DNA of 24,452 bases from Acidobacteriota bacterium (lineage in GTDB: Bacteria; Acidobacteriota; Thermoanaerobaculia; Gp7-AA8). The stretch is from positions 1 through 24,452 of the forward strand of contig JAXDJK010000597.1 in NCBI GenBank assembly GCA_034665665.1, written 5' to 3'. The position numbers were made by a program, and so were the translations under genes. The notes below the pieces were generated by a model. It did no database searches. It was given only the letters and a program-made list of their open reading frames with translations, and was not told where the DNA came from. This document shows, piece after piece, positions 1,938 through 16,628 of this stretch (its first letter is position 1; every line of letters starts with the position of its first letter).

Positions 1938-3638
1938 TCACGACGCGATGCGATAGGGAAGCGCCATCGCCAGCGCGAATCCGTCTCGTCGCGCGGAGAT
2001 GTCGAGAGAAAACGCATCGCCGTACATCTGCTCCAAGCGCGCTCGCGTATTCGAGAGCCCCAGCCCTTCGCGCGCGGGCAGCTCGCTGCCATTTCCACGT
2101 CCGTCGTCCTCCACGGCGATGTGCAATCGGTCCTGTCGGACCGTCGCCTGCACGGACACGCACCCGCCGGTCTCGGGGAGGAGGCCGTGGCGCAGGGCGT
2201 TCTCCACGAGCGGCTGCAGCAGGAAGCTGGGCACGAGCGCGCCTCGTGCGTCGTCGCTCGCCTCGACGACCAGTTCCGCGCGTCCTGCGAAGCGGATGTT
2301 CTCGATGGCGACGTAAGCGGCGAGCGAGTCGAGCTCCTCACGGAGCGGCACTTCCTCCCGGTCCGAGCGCTCGAGCACGCGCACGACGAAGTGCCGCAGC
2401 TCCGCGACCATACGCTGCGCGGTCGAGGCGTCGTCCTCGAGCAGCGCGGCGACGGAGTTCAACGAGTTGAAGAGGAAATGAGGGTTCAGCTGCAATCGAA
2501 GAAGGGTCGCGTGCGTACGAAGCATCGACGTTTCCAGCTCCGCGACCTTCGCGGCGGCGGCTGCGGCCTCGCGGTAGCGCGAGTACGCCAGGGTAGCCAG
2601 CCCGACGCCGAGGAAGAAAACCGGATCTAACGGACCGAAGAGCGCACGGTCGGGGTCGCGGGGAGACCCGATGGCTCGCCACAGGCTCACCAGTGTTGCG
2701 CCCCACAGCCACGGAACGCCGGTTGCGACCAGGATGAGCGGCCACACCCGTTCCACGCGCCTGCCCAGCCATACCATGGCCAGCGTTACGGGAAAGAACT
2801 CTACTGCCAGCGAGGCAGCCCAAAGCACCGGGGCCCACGAAAGCGGTTGGTTTCTCCACACGGCAAACAGCGCCTGGAGGACGCTCCAGAGGAGCTCATA
2901 CGCGGGGAGGATGCTGAACAACAGCAGGAGCCGGAGCGGGAGCGACCATTGCCGCCCTGCTGGCGCAAGCTCTTCTTCCCATTCCGCTTCGTCCTGCGCA
3001 ACCTCGTCGATCGCTGCATGGACCGTGGCGACGTTCAGCGACTCACGAAGTGATGCGGCGAACTCCTCGATCATCAGTTCGGCGCGGTCGGTGTCGAGCG
3101 CGATGGTTCGTTCGATCTGCAGGAGCCGCTCGCTGACGACGTGGACCGGTAATTCGAGCCGCAGGCGATCCAGAGCCGCCTGCGCCAGCGACCGCTCCAG
3201 CGCGAGCCGTTCCTGTTCCCGCCGTGCTGACGCTCGCAGATAGAGAGACATCTGTGTGGCCACCACCGTCACGCCATAGACGAGGAAATCCATCAGCATG
3301 TGTGGCGGGATCCACCAGAGCAGAATCCTCCACAGCGATGGTCCCGGGGAAGGGGGGGCACCTCGAACGAGCACGAATGTGAGCGTGTAGATGGCCAGGT
3401 GAACGGCATGGAAGGCGAGAGCGGCGACCAGATGGACGCCGATGAATCGCCACGTCTGGCGGCGCCGGTACGGGACGGCGGTGGCCACGCGAACCACCAG
3501 CGGAGCGAGGACGATCCACTCCGCCCACCCGAACGCGAGCCAGGCCATGCCGGACGGCCAATCCAGACCGAATGCAAGTCGCACCAGTACCTCGAGCAGC
3601 AGCAGCGAGATGCCGGCGATGACTGCTACGTATCTCAC
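1938..3638 (-). CDS. LytS/YehU-family membrane sensor histidine kinase with a duplicated TM + DHp module
   Basis: H-box LRLQLNPHFLFNSLN, N-box LLQPLVENALRHG, G1 VEDDGRG and G2 GLGLSNTRARL. Two hydrophobic multi-TM blocks. GTG start at 3638 overlaps the LytTR TGA (GTGA coupling), so the longer 4409 ORF is an artefact. Confidence 0.92.
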   Translation of the reverse strand: MRYVAVIAGISLLLLEVLVRLAFGLDWPSGMAWLAFGWAEWIVLAPLVVRVATAVPYRRRQTWRFIGVHLVAALAFHAVHLAIYTLTFVLVRGAPPSPGPSLWRILLWWIPPHMLMDFLVYGVTVVATQMSLYLRASARREQERLALERSLAQAALDRLRLELPVHVVSERLLQIERTIALDTDRAELMIEEFAASLRESLNVATVHAAIDEVAQDEAEWEEELAPAGRQWSLPLRLLLLFSILPAYELLWSVLQALFAVWRNQPLSWAPVLWAASLAVEFFPVTLAMVWLGRRVERVWPLILVATGVPWLWGATLVSLWRAIGSPRDPDRALFGPLDPVFFLGVGLATLAYSRYREAAAAAAKVAELETSMLRTHATLLRLQLNPHFLFNSLNSVAALLEDDASTAQRMVAELRHFVVRVLERSDREEVPLREELDSLAAYVAIENIRFAGRAELVVEASDDARGALVPSFLLQPLVENALRHGLLPETGGCVSVQATVRQDRLHIAVEDDGRGNGSELPAREGLGLSNTRARLEQMYGDAFSLDISARRDGFALAMALPYRIAS

Positions 3639-4381
3639 TGCGGCGAGCCCTCCAGGCGCTCGCGGTACGCGCGCGACAGCTGCAGTTGCGTCCCGTCGTG
3701 CAGCACGACGATGTGGTCCCCGTGGGAGGCGGGGCGGGTGTCCCGGATGCGTTGCAGGTTGACGATGGTGGTGCGATGGATCCGTACGAATTGTGTCGGG
3801 TCGAGCTTCTCCTCGAGCCCATTCATCGTCTGTCTCAGCAGAAAGCGCTCGCTGCCGACGTGGAGGCGCACGTAGTTGCCGGCAGATTCGAACCAGTCGA
3901 TCTGCTCCACCGGGACGAGCCGCACGCGCTCTTTGGATTTCACCGCAACGTGCTGCATGAACGTCGTCCTCTGCTCGACGCGCTCGAGAAACGCCGTCAG
4001 GGACGGGTTCGACCTCGCCGCCACCAGTTCGCGCACACGCGTCAGCGCCAGCCGGAGCGGCTCTCTCTCGACCGGCTTCAGAAGGTACTGCACGGCTGCC
4101 GCGCGGAACGCCTCGAGCGCGTACTGCTGATGGGCCGTGACAAAGACGATCAGCGGCCGCGACTCCGGCGGGATGCGTCGTACCACCTCGAAGCCGTCCA
4201 TCCGCGGCATCTGCACGTCGAGGAACATCACTCGAGGCGCGCGCTCCTCGACGAGGCGCAACGCTTCTTCGCCGCCGGCGGCCTCGCCGACAACCGTCAC
4301 GTCGGACGCGGCGCGCAGGAGCCTGCGAATCCGCTTCCGCGCTAGCGGCTCGTCGTCGACGATGAGCGCGGTGATCTGCAT
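3635..4381 (-). CDS. LytTR-family DNA-binding response regulator
   Basis: REC: LIVDDEPLAR, FLDVQMPRMDG, FVTAHQQYALEAF, YLLKP. LytTR: IDWFESAGNYVRLH and FVRIHRTTIVNL. Start at 4381 (MQITAL); 4402 is possible. Confidence 0.95.
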   Translation of the reverse strand: MQITALIVDDEPLARKRIRRLLRAASDVTVVGEAAGGEEALRLVEERAPRVMFLDVQMPRMDGFEVVRRIPPESRPLIVFVTAHQQYALEAFRAAAVQYLLKPVEREPLRLALTRVRELVAARSNPSLTAFLERVEQRTTFMQHVAVKSKERVRLVPVEQIDWFESAGNYVRLHVGSERFLLRQTMNGLEEKLDPTQFVRIHRTTIVNLQRIRDTRPASHGDHIVVLHDGTQLQLSRAYRERLEGSPQ

Positions 4382-4448
4382 CGGGGAGCGAGTGTGGTGC
4401 ATGGAGCATGATGGTTCAAGACCCCTCGTGAAGCGGCGGTCACCGCGG

Positions 4449-4512
4449 CGTCCACCTGATCACAATGCCGTCACAAAGTCGCTCGACGAACGGTATGCCG
4501 CCGCGACAATTC
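4449..4512 (+). promoter_or_regulatory. Conserved promoter/operator cassette, copy A (TCACAA-N5-TCACAAAG ... GACAAT), upstream of the serine hydrolase
   Basis: Ungapped 47/64 identity to the reverse complement of 9372-9435. TCACAA at 4460 and 4471 (11-bp period). A -10-like GACAAT lies at 4505-4510. Confidence 0.7.
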
Positions 4513-4533
4513 ACGCAGCCTGCGGACCATCCA

Positions 4534-5637
4534 ATGAGACGAACACTCGTTGCCCTGCTGATCTTCGTACAGTCTCCTCTCGCCGCGGCGACGCGCACGC
4601 GACCTGTGCACGCGCCACCGGTGATCGCGCCAGCGGCGATCGTGACGGCGGCACATCAGGCGGTCGAAGCGGCATTGAATGCCGGCGTTCCGGCGGTTCA
4701 GATCGCGGTGTCACACGGCGGTCGGGTCATCTACTCTGAGGCATTCGGCGTGACCGATGTAGGGAGCGCGACGCCCGCAACATCGCGATCGCCGATGCAG
4801 ATCGGCTCGGTGACGAAACAATTCACCGCAGCGGCGATTCTTCGCCTTGCCGAACGCGGGGCTCTGACGCTCGACGATCGCATCGAAACGCTCGTACCGG
4901 AATTCGATCCACGAGGCAGGACGATCACACTTCGGAACCTCCTCAACCACACGTCAGGAATCGCTCGCGATTGGTACCCACCCGACGTTCCCGCTGACCC
5001 GACCTTGCCGGTCACGCGTGAGCACGTCCTCAAGAACCTCAACGAGCGACCCTTCCTGTTCGCGACAGGCAAGGGGTTCAGTTACAGCAACGCCGGCTAC
5101 ATGCTGCTCGGCTATGCGATTGAATCGATCACCGGCGGATCGTTCGCCGATTTCATCCATGGTGAATTCGCGGTGCCGCTCGGGCTCCTCGACACCGGCG
5201 TGTGCGGAACGCACAACCTGCCGCTGCCTGCAGGTTACGCGGTATTCACGACATCGAACGGACCGACGCCGATGGCGGCGTGGCACCGGTCGTGGCTGTG
5301 GTCGTCCGGTTCGCTTTGCTCCACCGCATTCGATCTTGCCCGCTGGTCGCACTTCCTCGCAAGCGGCGTCGTCATGCTGCCCGCTTCGTACGAGACGATG
5401 AAGACTCCCGTGCCACCCGCAACTCCCTATGGGTTCGGCCTCGTGGTGCAAAAAATCCTGGGACGGCCGGCCGTGTGGCACGACGGCGCCATCTACGGCT
5501 TCGTCACGTATCTCGTTTACTTCGCCGGCGAAGACGTAGCGGTTGCGGTCAACATGAATACGTTCCCCACTCCGGCCGGCGTCGACCTACAGGGCATCGC
5601 GCTGGCGGTGGCGAAAGCTGCGCTCAACACACAGTAG
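4534..5637 (+). CDS. Secreted serine hydrolase, beta-lactamase class C / DD-peptidase family
   Basis: SxxK (IGSVTKQFT), LLNHTSG, YxN (FSYSNAGY) and HxG (WHDG). Signal peptide MRRTLVALLIFVQSPLAAA from ATG 4534. Confidence 0.92.
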   Translation: MRRTLVALLIFVQSPLAAATRTRPVHAPPVIAPAAIVTAAHQAVEAALNAGVPAVQIAVSHGGRVIYSEAFGVTDVGSATPATSRSPMQIGSVTKQFTAAAILRLAERGALTLDDRIETLVPEFDPRGRTITLRNLLNHTSGIARDWYPPDVPADPTLPVTREHVLKNLNERPFLFATGKGFSYSNAGYMLLGYAIESITGGSFADFIHGEFAVPLGLLDTGVCGTHNLPLPAGYAVFTTSNGPTPMAAWHRSWLWSSGSLCSTAFDLARWSHFLASGVVMLPASYETMKTPVPPATPYGFGLVVQKILGRPAVWHDGAIYGFVTYLVYFAGEDVAVAVNMNTFPTPAGVDLQGIALAVAKAALNTQ

Positions 5638-5698
5638 CGATCATTCGTCCGCCGTCCGCAAGAACGGCTGCCGTTGCTCGAAGAGGGGATCACTACAA

Positions 5699-6628
5699 AT
5701 GTTCACGTCAAAACGCGTTTCGCTCGCTGTACTTTCCATGATGATGTTCGCCGCGGTAGCGACTGCCAGTACCTTTCGTGCAGCCGATATCGTCTACCTT
5801 CCCGCCGTCGCACGTCTCCCGGGCGGGTTCGGCGCCTTCTTCAAGACCGACGTGACGATCACCAACACGAACACTACGCGGGTGGTCGTCCAGGTAGCGT
5901 ACGTCGAGGGGAGCGCAGACAACTCCACTGCGCTGAACACGCTCATCACGCTTCCGACGTTCGTGCCCGGCGAGCGGCGCGAGCTGATCGACATCGCGCA
6001 GAGCGCGCTCGGACGTGAGTCGGCCAACGGCTACCTGATCTTCTTTTCCTGCCGCGAAGGCGGCAATTGCACGAGTTGCGATACCAACGCCGGTGACTGC
6101 CTCAACATCACCGTTCAGGGCCGCATCTACAACGACACACCGGGCGGCACGTTCGGCCAGTCGTTCCCCGGGATTCCCTGGTACAGCTACGCGGCGATGA
6201 CCTCGACCACGGGTACGGACCGTCTTTCGATCAACGGCGTTCGCAACAATGCGAACTACCGGACCAACATAGGACTCGTGAATGCGTCGCAATTCTCGTC
6301 GACCGTGCTCCGCCTCCGCCTCTTCAACAGCACCGGCACTCAAGTCGGCGAGATGGACCAGACGCTCGGACCACTCGGCCGGAGTCAGTTCCCGGTGGCC
6401 CAGATCGCCGCCGGCTTCACCGGCGACGGCTACGTCACCGTCGAACAGGTCAGCGCCACTCCTACGCCCGGTCAGGAGGACGCGGTGCCGGGCTTCTTCG
6501 CCTATGGTTCGCTTCTCGACAACCGCACAAACGATCCCACCACACTCGAGGCGGAATTCAATGTTCCGCTGCCCTTCGATTGCGTCTACGCCGCCAAGGG
6601 CCAGGGGCGCCGCCCAGTTCGCCGCTAA
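5699..6628 (+). CDS. Secreted hypothetical protein; unnamed beta-rich domain (PA..PG.FG.FF[KR]T[DE]V ... NYRxN[IV]G ... DNRTND)
   Basis: RBS GAGGG. Signal peptide MFTSKRVSLAVLSMMMFAAVATA. Motif-level paralogy with the C-terminal half of 7961-9214. Basic C-terminus GRRPVRR. Confidence 0.85.
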   Translation: MFTSKRVSLAVLSMMMFAAVATASTFRAADIVYLPAVARLPGGFGAFFKTDVTITNTNTTRVVVQVAYVEGSADNSTALNTLITLPTFVPGERRELIDIAQSALGRESANGYLIFFSCREGGNCTSCDTNAGDCLNITVQGRIYNDTPGGTFGQSFPGIPWYSYAAMTSTTGTDRLSINGVRNNANYRTNIGLVNASQFSSTVLRLRLFNSTGTQVGEMDQTLGPLGRSQFPVAQIAAGFTGDGYVTVEQVSATPTPGQEDAVPGFFAYGSLLDNRTNDPTTLEAEFNVPLPFDCVYAAKGQGRRPVRR

Positions 6629-6689
6629 CCTTGGCCGATGGCGACGCGCTGCGCCGGCATCGCCAGCGCTACCAGCAGCAGGAGCTCCT

Positions 6690-7901
6690 CTACAGCGAGT
6701 TGAGGAAGGCGATCAGCCTCGCCCGCGCCTGCGCGTCGAGGCCCTGATAGGCCTCGCGCGACGTGCGCGCCTGCCCGTCGTGCGCCGTGACCGCATCATT
6801 GATGTTGTCCGCACGGCCGTCGTGCAGGAGCGTGCGCTGCGCGCGCAGTCCCCACAGCGGCGCCGTGCGGAATTCGCGGCCGCTCGCTTCCCCCTGCACG
6901 ATGCCGTCGCCGAGCGCGCCCATGTCGTGCAGCAGGAAGTCGGAGTACGGCGAGTAGATCTTGTTCGACAGCGCGGCGATCGGATGCGAGCCGGTGGTCA
7001 GATTCGGGACGTGGCACTGATTGCAGCCGAGCTGCTGGAACACCTGCTCACCGGCCGTGACGTCGGCCGTGATCAGGCCGCGCGACGGAGCGCCGAGCAT
7101 GAGCATGAAGTCGGTCAGTTGGCGCACACCGCCGCCGGTGTCGTTCAGGCCCGGCGCCGGATTGCGCGCGAGGTCTTTGCAGTTGCCGTTCGCACAGTGC
7201 TCGTTCGGGAACTCGGGACTGGTGATGCCCAACTCGTTCAGGTCCGCTTCGCCCGCGAACTGGAACAGCGACGGCAGCTGAGCTTTCCAGCCGAACTTAC
7301 CGACGGTGCGCGTGCCTGCGACGAAGTTCGTCACCAGCGCGGCGCGGCCTGCCGTGGCGGGATTGCGCTCCGCCTGCTGCGCGGCGAGAGCGATGAACGT
7401 CGCATCGGGCGTAGCGTCGACGAAACCGAGGCCGAAGAGCGGTGTGGTGCGGCGCTGCGTGACGATCGTCGCCTGCGCGGGGGGCACGAACTCGCGTTGG
7501 AACGGAGGGATCCCCTGCTCAGGACCGAGCGCGTGTTCCTGCAGCAGCAACCCGCCGAGCGCCGTCAGTGGATCGAACACGCCGTTCGTCGTCCTGCCGA
7601 ACAGCGTCACCACACGCGGATTCGAACCGCCCGCGACCGGAACGCTGTGGCAGCGGAGACAGGAGCGGTCGTTGAAGATCGGCCCGAGGCCGCCGGCGGC
7701 GTCTTTGTCCTCGTTGAACTCGCCGCGGGCAGCCAGCCAGGCCCCGAGTTGCGCCGCAGTCAGACTGCGAACCGGATCGCCGAGGTTGCCGGTCGGCGCC
7801 GGTGCGGGCTGGGACGGATGCTGCGCGGCACGCCTGCGCGTCGCCGCGACGACAGAAAACTGCCCAAGCATCAGAAGGAGGGCCAGGATTGCTCGAGTCA
7901 T
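6690..7901 (-). CDS. Di-heme oxidoreductase family (DHOR-like) c-type cytochrome
   Basis: Two CxxCH motifs (CLRCH, CNQCH). Family motifs GLGPIFNDRSC, RRTTPLFGLG, GKFGWKAQ, YSDFLLHDMG, FRTAPLWGL and LLHDGRA. Signal peptide from ATG 7901 (7916 possible). Confidence 0.9.
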   Translation of the reverse strand: MTRAILALLLMLGQFSVVAATRRRAAQHPSQPAPAPTGNLGDPVRSLTAAQLGAWLAARGEFNEDKDAAGGLGPIFNDRSCLRCHSVPVAGGSNPRVVTLFGRTTNGVFDPLTALGGLLLQEHALGPEQGIPPFQREFVPPAQATIVTQRRTTPLFGLGFVDATPDATFIALAAQQAERNPATAGRAALVTNFVAGTRTVGKFGWKAQLPSLFQFAGEADLNELGITSPEFPNEHCANGNCKDLARNPAPGLNDTGGGVRQLTDFMLMLGAPSRGLITADVTAGEQVFQQLGCNQCHVPNLTTGSHPIAALSNKIYSPYSDFLLHDMGALGDGIVQGEASGREFRTAPLWGLRAQRTLLHDGRADNINDAVTAHDGQARTSREAYQGLDAQARARLIAFLNSL

Positions 7902-13176: not shown

Positions 13177-13260
13177 TGTGTTGGTTTGGAGGCCCTTCTG
13201 TGACTTCTGCCGTCCGGAGCGGAACTACATTCCTCGCATTGAATTAAGGAGGAGCCCGCC

Positions 13261-13485
13261 ATGTCATTGCGTTACACGGAGCTCGGTGTTCATCTCTCCC
13301 GCGAAGCATGTGGTCCCGCAACGAAAGATTTCTGCCCCACGGCCTCGGCCAGCATCCTCATCCACGCCTGCGGACAGGTGACGGCGTTCTGCCCGACCCT
13401 GTCGGCATCAGGCATGCCGCACAAGGCCACGGAAATCGACTTCGAGCCAGTCCGCGCGCAGCTGCGCGAGGCCCTCGGCCATTAA
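13261..13485 (+). CDS. 74-aa small protein with two Cys-containing internal repeats and an amphipathic C-terminal helix (RiPP-precursor-like or metal-binding)
   Basis: Strong RBS AAGGAGG at 13246-13252. Repeats ACGPATKDFCPTASAS and ACGQVTAFCPTLSAS. A perfect 12-bp hairpin lies immediately downstream of the stop. Confidence 0.75.
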   Translation: MSLRYTELGVHLSREACGPATKDFCPTASASILIHACGQVTAFCPTLSASGMPHKATEIDFEPVRAQLREALGH

Positions 13486-13779: not shown

Positions 13780-13964
13780 GATCCATGGATCTCGCCGGGA
13801 TGCATTCATCCCCAGAGGCTGACATCCATGGATGGCGACATTTGGAGTTTGGATGCACCAAGAGCCCATCCATGGATGCGATTCTGGATCGTTCCATCCC
13901 GACTCTGTGCCATCCATGGACGGCGCTTGCGCAGGTTCATCGCACATCGCGCCAGCCATGGATG
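13780..13964. repeat. Array of five 12-bp palindromes (consensus CATCCATGGATG) at a 42-44 bp period
   Basis: Units start at 13780 (GATCCATGGATC), 13823 (CATCCATGGATG), 13867 (CATCCATGGATG), 13911 (CATCCATGGACG) and 13953 (CAGCCATGGATG). Spacers are 31, 32, 32 and 30 nt. A degenerate sixth copy lies near 13718-13730. Confidence 0.85.
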
Positions 13965-14006
13965 TTGCCGGCGGCAGCGGCGCGCGCGGAGCGCACGACG
14001 GCGGCG

Positions 14007-14012
14007 TATCAT
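14007..14012 (+). promoter_or_regulatory. -10 element TATCAT, probable leaderless promoter
   Basis: TAnnnT hexamer 7 nt upstream of ATG 14020. No Shine-Dalgarno sequence. Confidence 0.4.
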
Positions 14013-14019
14013 CTGCGGC

Positions 14020-14760
14020 ATGGCCGATCTCGCCACGTTCAGCCTCGCGGATGTCGTTCGGTGCAGCTCGGAGCTGCGGGTATCGTCCGCTGGTGCCGCG
14101 TCCATGGAGGAGGCGGCGGTGCGGGTGGTCGGGCGGCTCTATGACACGCTCCTCGACGCCGCGACGGGCGAACGGGCCGTTGCGCTGATCCGGCTGTTCA
14201 AAACGCATCCGTACGGCGCGCTCGAGCCGGAGCAGCGCGTGTTCGCGGACCGGCTGCTCGGCGACCACCAGCCGGCGCCGTCGATGCGCTGCCTGACCCT
14301 GCTGGCTACACGCGGACAGGAACCGGAGTGGAACGACCGGCACGGCTCGCGCGGCCACGCGGCCATTCCGCTGCCGAGCGAGAAGATCGTCCAGAACGCG
14401 CCGATGATCTCGCAGCTCATCGCGCAGCTCGGCGTCGACATCTCGGCGCTGCTCCGTCCGGAGCCGAACGTCATCGTCGATCTGGCCCAGAAGAGCTACA
14501 ACGTCTTCCACGTGCCGGAGGCGAAGGGGAGTCCGTACATCCCCGCGCAGGATGACTTCGTGATTCCGTTCGGCATCCGTTCGGTCCTCGGGTTCGGCGG
14601 GATGCTCCCCTCGGGGAACCTGTTCGCCACGATCCTGTTCACGAAGACCGCGGTGCCGCGGGAGACGGCCGACCTCTTCGCGAACGTTGCATTGGCGGTC
14701 AAGCTGGCCATCCTGCCGTTCGACGGCGGTGCCACCTTTGCAGACACAGCCAAGGCGTGA
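14020..14760 (+). CDS. Conserved uncharacterised stand-alone sensor-like (probably GAF-related) protein
   Basis: Motifs [60 protein letters not shown] and [18 protein letters not shown] resemble a domain I recall fused to or upstream of histidine kinases. Translationally coupled (GTGA) to the downstream kinase. Confidence 0.8.
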
Positions 14761-16628
14761 GCGTCAACGAACTGACCGCGGTCAACGAGACCGACCTGCT
14801 CCGTGCCGAAGCGGCGACGCTGCAGCAGCTCATGGGCGTGCTGGAGCGGACCACCCTCGAGCAGACGCGAAAGCTCGAAGAGGCGATCCGCGACCGCACC
14901 GCCGCGGCCGAGGAACTGCGGCGACAGCTCGAAACCACGCGCGCGCTCACCGAGAGCATGGGCGAGGGCGTGCTCGCCTTCGGCGCCGATGCGCGGCTCT
15001 CGTTCGTCAACAGCGCGGCGCGGGAGATGCTCGGCGTCGACGAGCCGAGCGTCCAGGGAAAGCTGCTGCACGAGATTGGGCTGACCCGCCGTCCTGAGAC
15101 CATCGCCGCGATCTGGCGGGTCTTCGACGCCCGGACGACGGTGCGGAGCGACGACGACCTGTTTCTCACCGCCAGGGGCCAACAGCTTGCCGTGTCGTAC
15201 ACGGCCTCACCGATCATTGCGGGCGGCGAGTTCCTCGGCGCGGTGGTGGTCTTTCACGACATTTCGGCGCGCAAACGGGCGGACGAAGAGCGGCAGAAGC
15301 TGCTCGAGATCGAGCGCGAGGCCCGGGTTCAGGCGGAGCGCGCCCGGGAGACCAGCCGCTTTCTGGCCGAGGCCGGGTCGGTGCTCGTGTCGTCTCTCGA
15401 TTCGGCGGCGACGCTCGAGCGGGTGGCACGGCTCGCGGTCCCCTCGTTCGCCGACTGGAGCTTCGTCCATCTCCTCGACGCCACCGGAACCCTCCGCCGC
15501 GTCACCGCCGTGCATTCCGACCCGGCCCGGGAGGCGCTTCTGAACGCGGTGGAAGAGAGCTATCCGCCGTCGAACGACGATCCGTATGGGCCGAGCAAGG
15601 TGACGCGCACGGGCGTGAGCGAGATCGTCCCCGTCGTCGGAGAGGAAGTCCTCGAAGAGTCGGCCAAGGATGCGGCGCATCTCAATCAGTTGCGGACGTT
15701 CGGCTTCACGTCGTACGTCTCCGTTCCGCTCGTGGCGCGTACGCGGGCGCTGGGAGCGATGACCTTCGCCATGGCCGAGTCGGGCCGTCACTTCGGTGAA
15801 AGCGAGCTCCTGCTGGCGCAGCAACTGGTGGACCGCGCCGCACTGGCCATCGACAACGCCCGCCTGTTCACGGAGGTCGAGGAGGCGCGGCGCGATCTCG
15901 AGCAACGCGTGCTGGCCCGAACGGCGCAGCTCGAAGAAGCGAATCGCGAGCTGGAGTCGTTCTCCTACTCGGTCTCCCACGACCTGCGCGCGCCGATCCG
16001 TCACATCAGCGGCTTCGTGGACCTGTTCCGCAAGCGAGGCGGCGACGCGCTCGACGCCACCTCCGAGCACTACCTGCAGGTGATCGCCGGTGCGGCCAAA
16101 CAGGCCGGCACACTCGTCGACGACCTGCTGGCGTTCTCGCGCATGGGGCGGGCCGAGCTGGCCACGCAGCGCGTGTCGATGGATGCGATGGTGAAGGAGG
16201 TGCTGGGCCTGCTTCAGCCCGAGACCGGCTCCCGCTCCATCGAGTGGCGGATCGGTCCGCTCGGAGAAGTGACCGGAGACGCGGCGATGTTGCGGCTCGT
16301 CTGGCGGAACCTGCTGTCGAACGCCATCAAGTACACGCGGACGCGCGAGGCTGCCGTCATCGAGGTCGAGAGGACCGAGCTGGAGCGCGAGCACGTGTTT
16401 TGCGTAAGGGATAACGGCGTCGGGTTCGATATGAAATACGTCGGCAAGTTGTTCGGGGTGTTCCAGCGCCTGCACTCCGCCGACGAGTTCGAGGGCACGG
16501 GCATCGGCCTGGCCAACGTGCGCCGTATCGTCGGCCGCCATCGCGGCCGAGCCTGGGCGGAAGGGGAGATCGACCGTGGATCGACATTTTGCTTCGCGCT
16601 GCCGCGCGAACCGGAGGAGACGAATTGA
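14757..16628 (+). CDS. Cytoplasmic PAS-GAF sensor histidine kinase, phytochrome (Cph1)-type transmitter
   Basis: PAS ([22 protein letters not shown] ... [12 protein letters not shown]), GAF ([14 protein letters not shown] ... LAIDNARLF), H-box [42 protein letters not shown] and GTGIGLA. Confidence 0.95.

Follow-up and report, generated by a model that had tools for sequence, protein, structure and literature searches.

In the prochlorosins of cyanobacterial hosts, one synthetase, ProcM, serves many scattered ProcA precursors that carry common recognition sequences and differing cores. ProcM is a class II LanM with a three-cysteine (CCG) zinc site, and the ProcA leaders are of the NHLP/Nif11 type and come with no follower. 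Class IV enzymes that have been characterised bind the leader through their kinase domain, in a manner described as RRE-independent, and class IV and class III clusters mostly have no dedicated protease (PMC8341899). The zinc ligands of the cyclases NisC and SgbL are Cys-Cys-His (PMC8341899). The small peptide investigated here is encoded in a 24,452-nt stretch of DNA from an Acidobacteriota bacterium (the window, i.e. the whole stretch that was analysed) and is very probably a homologue of the precursors of a cassette that consists of a protein termed X and a kinase-LanC enzyme. Neither the cassette nor the peptide family was found described in the literature searched; new are the orphan CPTASA/CGQATA subfamily and a C-x3-S/T rule.

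The Shine-Dalgarno sequence, the ORF of 74 aa and the perfect hairpin that a sequence-only reading of this DNA had pointed out are all present in the sequence, the ORF starting with the ATG at position 13261 (Table 1). The same holds for the two near-identical Cys units proposed there, which occupy residues 16-31 and 36-50. Pair 1 reads A-C-G-P-A-T-K-D-F-C-P-T-A-S-A-S with the spacing C-x7-C, and has Thr or Ser at +4 of both Cys17 and Cys25; because it is absent or truncated in many homologues, it was regarded as the variable part. Pair 2 reads A-C-G-Q-V-T-A-F-C-P-T-L-S-A-S with the spacing C-x6-C, and holds C44-P45-T46 and S48-A49, which are invariant columns of the family alignment. In total the core comprises four Cys and eight Ser/Thr residues, with four Cys-x3-Ser/Thr units within residues 16-50. 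Folding of the strand gave a dG of -30.2 kcal/mol for the hairpin (z = -4.15 vs shuffles). No U-tract was present 3' of its stem, and a promoter and simple terminator scan around the ORF called nothing, the hairpin included; it is likely a transcript-end or stabilising structure.

Table 1. Features of the peptide gene and its flanks, in positions of the window
Feature	Position	Strand	Description and basis
Shine-Dalgarno AAGGAGG	13246..13252	+	8 nt 5' of ATG; read from sequence
74-aa ORF, stop included	13261..13485	+	precursor-type peptide, CPTASA/CGQATA family; homologues, dN/dS
Leader-like segment, residues 1-15	13261..13305	+	alignments of family
Core unit pair 1, residues 16-31	13306..13353	+	CGPAT then FCPTASAS
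Core unit pair 2, residues 36-50	13366..13410	+	CGQVT then FCPTLSAS
Follower, residues 59-74	13435..13482	+	amphipathic helix, invariant R65 and R69; AlphaFold2, alignments
Perfect hairpin, 12-bp stem, 4-nt loop	13497..13524	+	3' of stop codon; folding

AlphaFold2 modelling of the peptide with the family alignment resulted in a mean pLDDT of 53.5 and a pTM of 0.25, with pLDDT values below 50 over residues 13-48. The sole confidently modelled element was a helix at residues 62-72, in agreement with the C-terminal amphipathic helix proposed before; the peptide is likewise devoid of a hydrophobic signal sequence, as had been noted. Pfam and NCBIfam searches with the peptide yielded no family match and no NHLP leader match, and a search of the ESM Atlas yielded no usable match.

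A word-indexed search revealed 16 close homologues of 63-92 aa, and an exhaustive search together with a second profile search extended the family to 94 members of 55-177 aa, the window's peptide counted. All members derive from metagenomes or MAGs of uncultured soil Acidobacteria, for the most part Thermoanaerobaculia-like, and several are labelled Thermoanaerobaculia by their source. Four large proteins obtained in the profile search (P0025, P0028, P0031 and P0034) were rejected as compositional or Cys-repeat matches. Pairwise dN/dS values against homologous loci with DNA ranged from 0.28 to 0.60, and the N-terminus and the start context are conserved; the peptide gene is real and not a chance ORF. 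The leader follows the consensus M-[SA]-x-[RKQ]-x-x-[DE]-L-x-[IV]-x-L, in which M1 and L8 are invariant throughout the family; within residues 1-15 of the window's peptide, R4 is nearly invariant as well. The follower helix retains its two arginines across the family. In the core, the only invariant positions are the five named above for pair 2, and the number of Cys units varies. Conserved flanks with variable cores had been proposed as the check for a precursor family, and this is the pattern that was found: leader and helix are kept, while the Cys units vary in type and in number (1 to 8).

Two types of unit could be distinguished, CG(Q/P/E)xT(A) and (F)CPTxSA, both of which obey C-x-x-x-[ST]. 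Ser or Thr is located at +4 of 84% of the cysteines of the family and at +2 of 54%, compared with an overall Ser+Thr content of 14%. All members (94/94) possess the CPTxSA unit at least once. The minimal members P0022, P0023 and P0026 have one Cys each, and a subgroup of 159-177 aa has 5-8 strict CPTxSA units, or up to about nine if degenerate copies are counted, and ends in a long tail of coiled-coil-like character.

The distribution of the family among genomes is sparse. A narrow profile gave no match in 40 relatives, one of which is a 100%-complete genome from the same genus. A wider profile, applied to 400 genomes of the class, gave clear members only in the window's genome (G000), which has a single copy, and in G019; three genomes, all from one different genus, yielded distant members among their small ORFs. 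Pattern scans of GTDB genomes and JGI metagenomes yielded one locus each, which is an undercount because these scans rely on two fixed patterns; in the GTDB scan, G041 was the only other species genome with a close family member.

About 17 neighbourhoods of family members or relatives were examined, and in six loci (L016, L040, L013, G369, G279 and G365) the X and kinase-LanC cassette was found beside them. In L016, the stop codon of the 66-aa member P0032 overlaps the start of X, here a protein of 330 aa with no Pfam match; next comes the gene of a 623-aa kinase whose C-terminus is weakly LanC-like. The 108-aa member P0060 precedes X and kinase-LanC in the same order in L040 (genome G019). 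In L013, the nine-unit member P0076 clusters with a 396-aa homologue of X (37% identity, E = 1e-54) and with a Pkinase+LANC_like gene whose product is 47% identical to the L016 enzyme. In G369, G279 and G365 the peptide lies 6-7 kb from X. The gene order in G369, a complete genome, is STK-PD40, a 101-aa precursor, X, kinase-LanC, a giant STK-PD40 and an 86-aa precursor, the last of which carries two CGQATA units. X and kinase-LanC were adjacent in all loci examined (L016, L013, G041, G005, G001, G019 and G369).

Immediately 5' of X, G005, G001 and G041 each have an ORF whose leader and follower are of the type of the window's peptide and whose Cys/Thr core is unrelated; the leader common to these ORFs is M-x-K-[IV]-[KR]-[DE]-L-G-[IV] and their follower L-x-Q-Q-L-R. 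More small ORFs with the same leader and follower motifs and entirely different Cys/Thr-rich cores could be observed in L012-L014. The genome G001, which belongs to the same genus as the window's genome, possesses the cassette, and profile searches found no CPTASA-type peptide in it. Directly upstream of X in this genome (L038:7892-8599) is a 235-aa precursor-like protein with the shared leader, about seven tandem Cys-rich units of about 19 residues (GCSDCTQQAFSICGTT...) and a long coiled-coil tail. A 195-aa neighbour of this protein has repeats of the CGCTNITNPC type.

Repeated modules were also seen in L012:6528-20480, L013:49-11727 and L046:153-10638, in which a giant Ser/Thr kinase with a Tricorn/PD40 propeller is followed by a small peptide about 40-120 bp downstream. 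The kinases are about 1100-1190 aa long and often have two kinase domains, and the peptides have common leader and follower motifs with a different core each. Four of these modules follow one another in L012.

The family of X comprises at least 452 proteins, mostly from MAGs of Thermoanaerobaculia/Acidobacteria and without exception annotated as hypothetical; X itself has no Pfam domain above threshold. Two lyase models were tested on X (PF17914 and PF25816). RamC_N is the lyase domain of class III synthetases, and HopA1 is the class V lyase family. Among 41 homologues of X, four faint matches to RamC_N (best E 4.7e-4) and two to HopA1 (best E 0.0066) were obtained, all of them below the cut-off. 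Sequence and profile searches of the PDB with X found nothing, the AlphaFold2 fold of X (pLDDT 59) was too weak to be classified, and its AFDB neighbours are proteins of about 30% identity that were automatically named 'winged helix DNA-binding'. These faint matches would fit a stand-alone phospho-Ser/Thr lyase. A domain common to X and the N-terminus of the enzyme was considered and rejected (hhalign probability 6.7%, not significant), and an apparent fusion of X and the enzyme in G041 turned out to be an over-extended ORF call, X being a separate gene in another frame.

The cassette enzyme has a central kinase domain (Pkinase, 47.8 bits in the L016 enzyme) and a C-terminal LanC-like domain (LANC_like, 88.9 bits in the G041 enzyme). 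The best curated NCBIfam match was class IV LanL (NF038150), and class III LanKC was matched as well; the scores against the LanL and LanKC models were 67-132 bits against a cut-off of 650. These alignments start only at model positions 237-334, past the lyase region (LanL positions 237-814 were aligned). No canonical OspF-like lyase domain was detected in the enzyme, and its first 190 residues gave no match to a lyase domain even at E values up to 10. In the LanC-like domain, GIAHGW and GWCNGSAG are conserved and WCNG and LCCG invariant. The third zinc ligand position is thus occupied by Cys (CCG), where the canonical site has His; a three-Cys zinc site is the ProcM-type variant.

To obtain a model of a cognate complex, the L016 trio of X, residues 1-380 of kinase-LanC and P0032 was folded together. 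The trio reached a score of 0.74, while the best of three controls scored 0.00; with the enzyme chain replaced, the score fell to 0.00. In the calibration, 58 of 80 solved complexes attained this mark, as did 2 of 110 mismatched pairs; these counts apply only roughly here because own alignments and three chains were used. The model runs agreed in at least 55% of the contacts, and the partner pLDDT was at least 54. Confident contacts connected residues 1-14 and 49-64 of P0032, the equivalents of the window's leader and follower, with residues 3-96 and 308-315 of the enzyme; residues of X were not among the confident contacts of the trio. The model supports a docking of both conserved ends on the N-terminal domain of the enzyme, with the core left free.

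None of this machinery was found around the window's peptide. The larger ORFs of the window were assigned by Pfam/NCBIfam to a phosphoesterase, a LytS-type kinase, a beta-lactamase-fold protein, an OmdA-domain protein, a di-haem oxidoreductase (DHOR) on the minus strand and several PAS/GAF histidine kinases; four ORFs had no family match. Directly upstream of the peptide is a secreted, sortilin/BNR-like propeller of 1184 aa. No known RiPP maturase was among the annotated larger ORFs, and the Pfam/NCBIfam scans bear out the earlier statement that the window has no YcaO, LanM/LanKC, radical SAM or MNIO gene. A 310-aa ORF without Pfam/NCBIfam match (13828-14760) shares 4 nt with the 5' end of a PAS-GAF histidine kinase gene (14757-16628), after which come a hybrid kinase and an ORF of 578 aa without family. 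By BLAST, the propeller, the 310-aa ORF, the histidine kinases and the unannotated ORFs were unlike the cassette and unlike the neighbours of other members. The suggestion that the neighbouring propeller or the DHOR might be the modifying enzyme was therefore dropped; moreover, the propeller is syntenic only in the closest relative, and the DHOR occurred in no context examined.

This orphan situation is shared by most close relatives of the window's peptide, and by all of the closest ones. Ten of the neighbourhoods had unrelated neighbours (the window, the P0005 contig, L004, L007, L005, L008, L009, the P0011 contig, L015 and L048). The P0005 contig is the only one that shares the upstream propeller, which an additional gene of 256 aa separates from the peptide there. 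The neighbours in L004 and L007 are an M4 peptidase and AraC, and an M28 peptidase is present on the P0011 contig. These are secreted-type Zn peptidases that are divergent from the orphan members, the M4 enzymes being thermolysin-like (L004:8785-9912 and L007:8767-9882). General Zn peptidases have been reported to be borrowed for leader removal by class III and IV lanthipeptides (PMC8341899); their position next to orphan members may be a coincidence. In L009, an operon beside the member (2907-7875) encodes ThiF (E1-like), UQ_con (E2-like), Prok-RING, a JAB deubiquitinase-like protein, FHA and a YukD ubiquitin-like protein, and has the appearance of a ubiquitination-like system of bacteria.

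The assembled part of the window's genome was queried with the cassette sequences of L016, L013, G041, G001 and G019. No orthologue of X or of kinase-LanC was found in it, the matches being to generic kinase domains. Since this genome is 58.5% complete (median contig 4.3 kb) and no cassette was found in it, the enzyme link of the window's peptide is one that we infer; the enzyme pair would have to lie elsewhere, and the peptide would therefore be modified in trans. A comparable arrangement is seen in G041, where a member (L007/L010) is an orphan and X and kinase-LanC lie on a different contig, beside two different precursors. X was present in all five peptide-bearing genomes tested, a co-occurrence of weak statistics because three of the five belong to one genus, and a homologue of kinase-LanC was present in 4 of 40 relatives. 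At the level of the family, the proposal of a precursor processed in trans is supported by the six loci in which a lanthipeptide-type cassette is accompanied by peptides that keep these flanks around unrelated cores.

Other lanthipeptide-type genes were encountered in the same two genomes. Contig C486 of the window's genome (5.3 kb; L027:243-2408 on the plus and 2775-5333 on the minus strand) carries a class II LanM convergent with an NHLP-type, peptidase-containing bacteriocin ABC exporter. The LanM (TIGR03897, 849 bits) has a CHG zinc motif and has lost its N-terminus at the contig end, and no precursor gene was visible on the contig. On contig C10 of G041 (L031:32-1096 and 2185-4209), an LxmK-like kinase adjoins a protein of 675 aa in which LANC_like is matched strongly (198 bits). 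The kinase scored 108 bits with the model of the class V lanthionine synthetase subunit, which is below the cut-off; from its domains, this may be a second, class V-like lanthipeptide locus.

By analogy with the chemistry of class III, IV and V lanthipeptides, we infer how the window's copy would be modified and which rings would be formed. Leader and follower would jointly dock on the N-terminal domain of kinase-LanC, and the kinase domain would phosphorylate Ser and Thr residues of the core. The stand-alone X, as probable lyase, would eliminate the phosphate to give dehydro-amino acids, to which the LanC-like domain with its CCG zinc motif would add Cys thiols, resulting in thioether rings. 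Because the spacing within the units is invariant, small rings inside each C-x-T-x-S unit are suggested. An enzyme pair located away from the peptide would act in trans, as one synthetase acts on the scattered prochlorosin precursors. That the window's peptide is such a trans-processed precursor of a lanthipeptide-type RiPP system is moderately probable. Reverse polarity means that the Cys is N-terminal to the dehydro residue. A more far-reaching picture is tentative and rather doubtful as a whole: a lyase-less kinase-cyclase with a three-Cys zinc site, an added docking domain and X as a separate protein, which would clamp both ends of its substrate and form C-x3-S/T rings of reverse polarity in products from peptides of about 30 residues to coiled-coil proteins of 235 aa, the orphans being dispersed substrates and possibly parts of receptor-kinase signal-sensor pairs instead of antibiotics.

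With ten orphan neighbourhoods among about 17, the orphan subgroup could hold a different role. RiPP cores are usually hypervariable; the CPTxSA unit, by contrast, is invariant across the family and looks more like a fixed modification or recognition site. Together with the protein-like appearance of the long members with coiled-coil tails, and with the position of the L012-L014 and G369 peptides, each immediately downstream of a giant PD40-propeller Ser/Thr kinase, this would fit a precursor-derived small protein that is now unmodified or merely phosphorylated. Such a protein could be a substrate, decoy or adaptor in Ser/Thr-kinase signalling, with P-T-x-S as phospho-acceptors and the C-terminal helix as interaction module. 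We consider this unlikely: the members in L016 and L040 are translationally coupled to X and kinase-LanC, the Cys at -4 from Ser/Thr would be superfluous in a pure phospho-site, and the docking model puts both flanks on the LanC-fusion enzyme. The sequence-only reading had offered a metal-binding or redox mini-protein as its other possibility. The four cysteines of the window's copy, with their spacings, and the lack of a modifying enzyme nearby are compatible with it, but only C44 is invariant and members range from a single Cys to about nine. The number of units varies freely and no Pfam/NCBIfam family was matched. The single-Cys members and the predicted disorder of the Cys region conflict with this claim: they speak against a folded Cys4 site and favour a core that is unstructured and resembles a substrate. 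We regard the mini-protein as very improbable.

The LanM of contig C486 could be thought to modify the peptide, whose Cys/Ser/Thr content is that of a lanthipeptide core, and it adjoins an exporter of the peptidase-containing type. The exporter, however, is of the NHLP/Nif11-leader type, and the window's leader matches neither NHLP nor any other NCBIfam model; the LanM has an ordinary CHG motif, and the family is linked to X and kinase-LanC. As none of the contexts examined has a member next to a LanM, this is a minor and quite improbable rival. Repeated Cys-x3-Asp motifs are known from freyrasin, and the tandem Cys-x3-X repeats of the family would by analogy also suit a radical-SAM thioether peptide of the ranthipeptide or sactipeptide type. 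A radical SAM/SPASM gene is indeed located 3 kb from the member in L004 (13141-14250), but it is absent from the syntenic site in the closely related L007 and from all other contexts, so that such a maturase is near one of about 17 neighbourhoods, and the recurrent neighbour of the family is the kinase-LanC cassette; this origin is extremely improbable. Substrates of YcaO (azoline/azole RiPPs) or of MNIO (DUF692) enzymes were rejected, no such Pfam family being present in any context listed.

If the preferred reading, a lanthipeptide-type precursor processed in trans, is true, soil Acidobacteria would have a lanthipeptide-type chemistry with an enzyme layout and a two-ended recognition that are absent from the characterised classes. 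Precursor genes could then sit far from their enzymes, and genome mining among the neighbours of synthetases would miss them. The invariant and tandemly repeatable C-x3-S/T unit would be a handle for finding the substrates and for studying the ring chemistry. The recurrent pairing of precursors with receptor-type kinases hints at a role in signalling and not at one as antibiotics.

In comparison with the described systems, the cassette is most readily set beside class IV LanL (VenL, SgbL) and class III LanKC, which likewise have a Ser/Thr-kinase-like domain fused to a LanC-like cyclase, and the zinc-ligand positions of class IV are retained in the cassette enzyme too (PMC8341899). The LanA peptides of both classes are, like the window's family, leader-dependent with a Cys/Ser/Thr-rich core. 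Unlike these enzymes, the cassette enzyme has no detected OspF-like N-terminal lyase domain and is always adjacent to a separate X, and its zinc motif is CCG instead of CHG. The peptide family adds a conserved C-terminal follower, and its cores are tandem C-x3-S/T units. The leader, bound by the kinase domain in class IV, is placed together with the follower on an extra N-terminal domain in the cassette model. Class V (LxmK kinase, LxmY/LanY HopA1-like lyase, LxmX cyclase) resembles the cassette in its split synthetase and in having a stand-alone lyase candidate; the cassette, however, has its kinase fused to the cyclase, a LanC-like domain that carries zinc ligands, and X lies below every Pfam threshold. 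With the prochlorosins, the family shares the logic of one enzyme for many precursors and the CCG motif, whereas the type of enzyme, the leader, the follower and the hosts are different.
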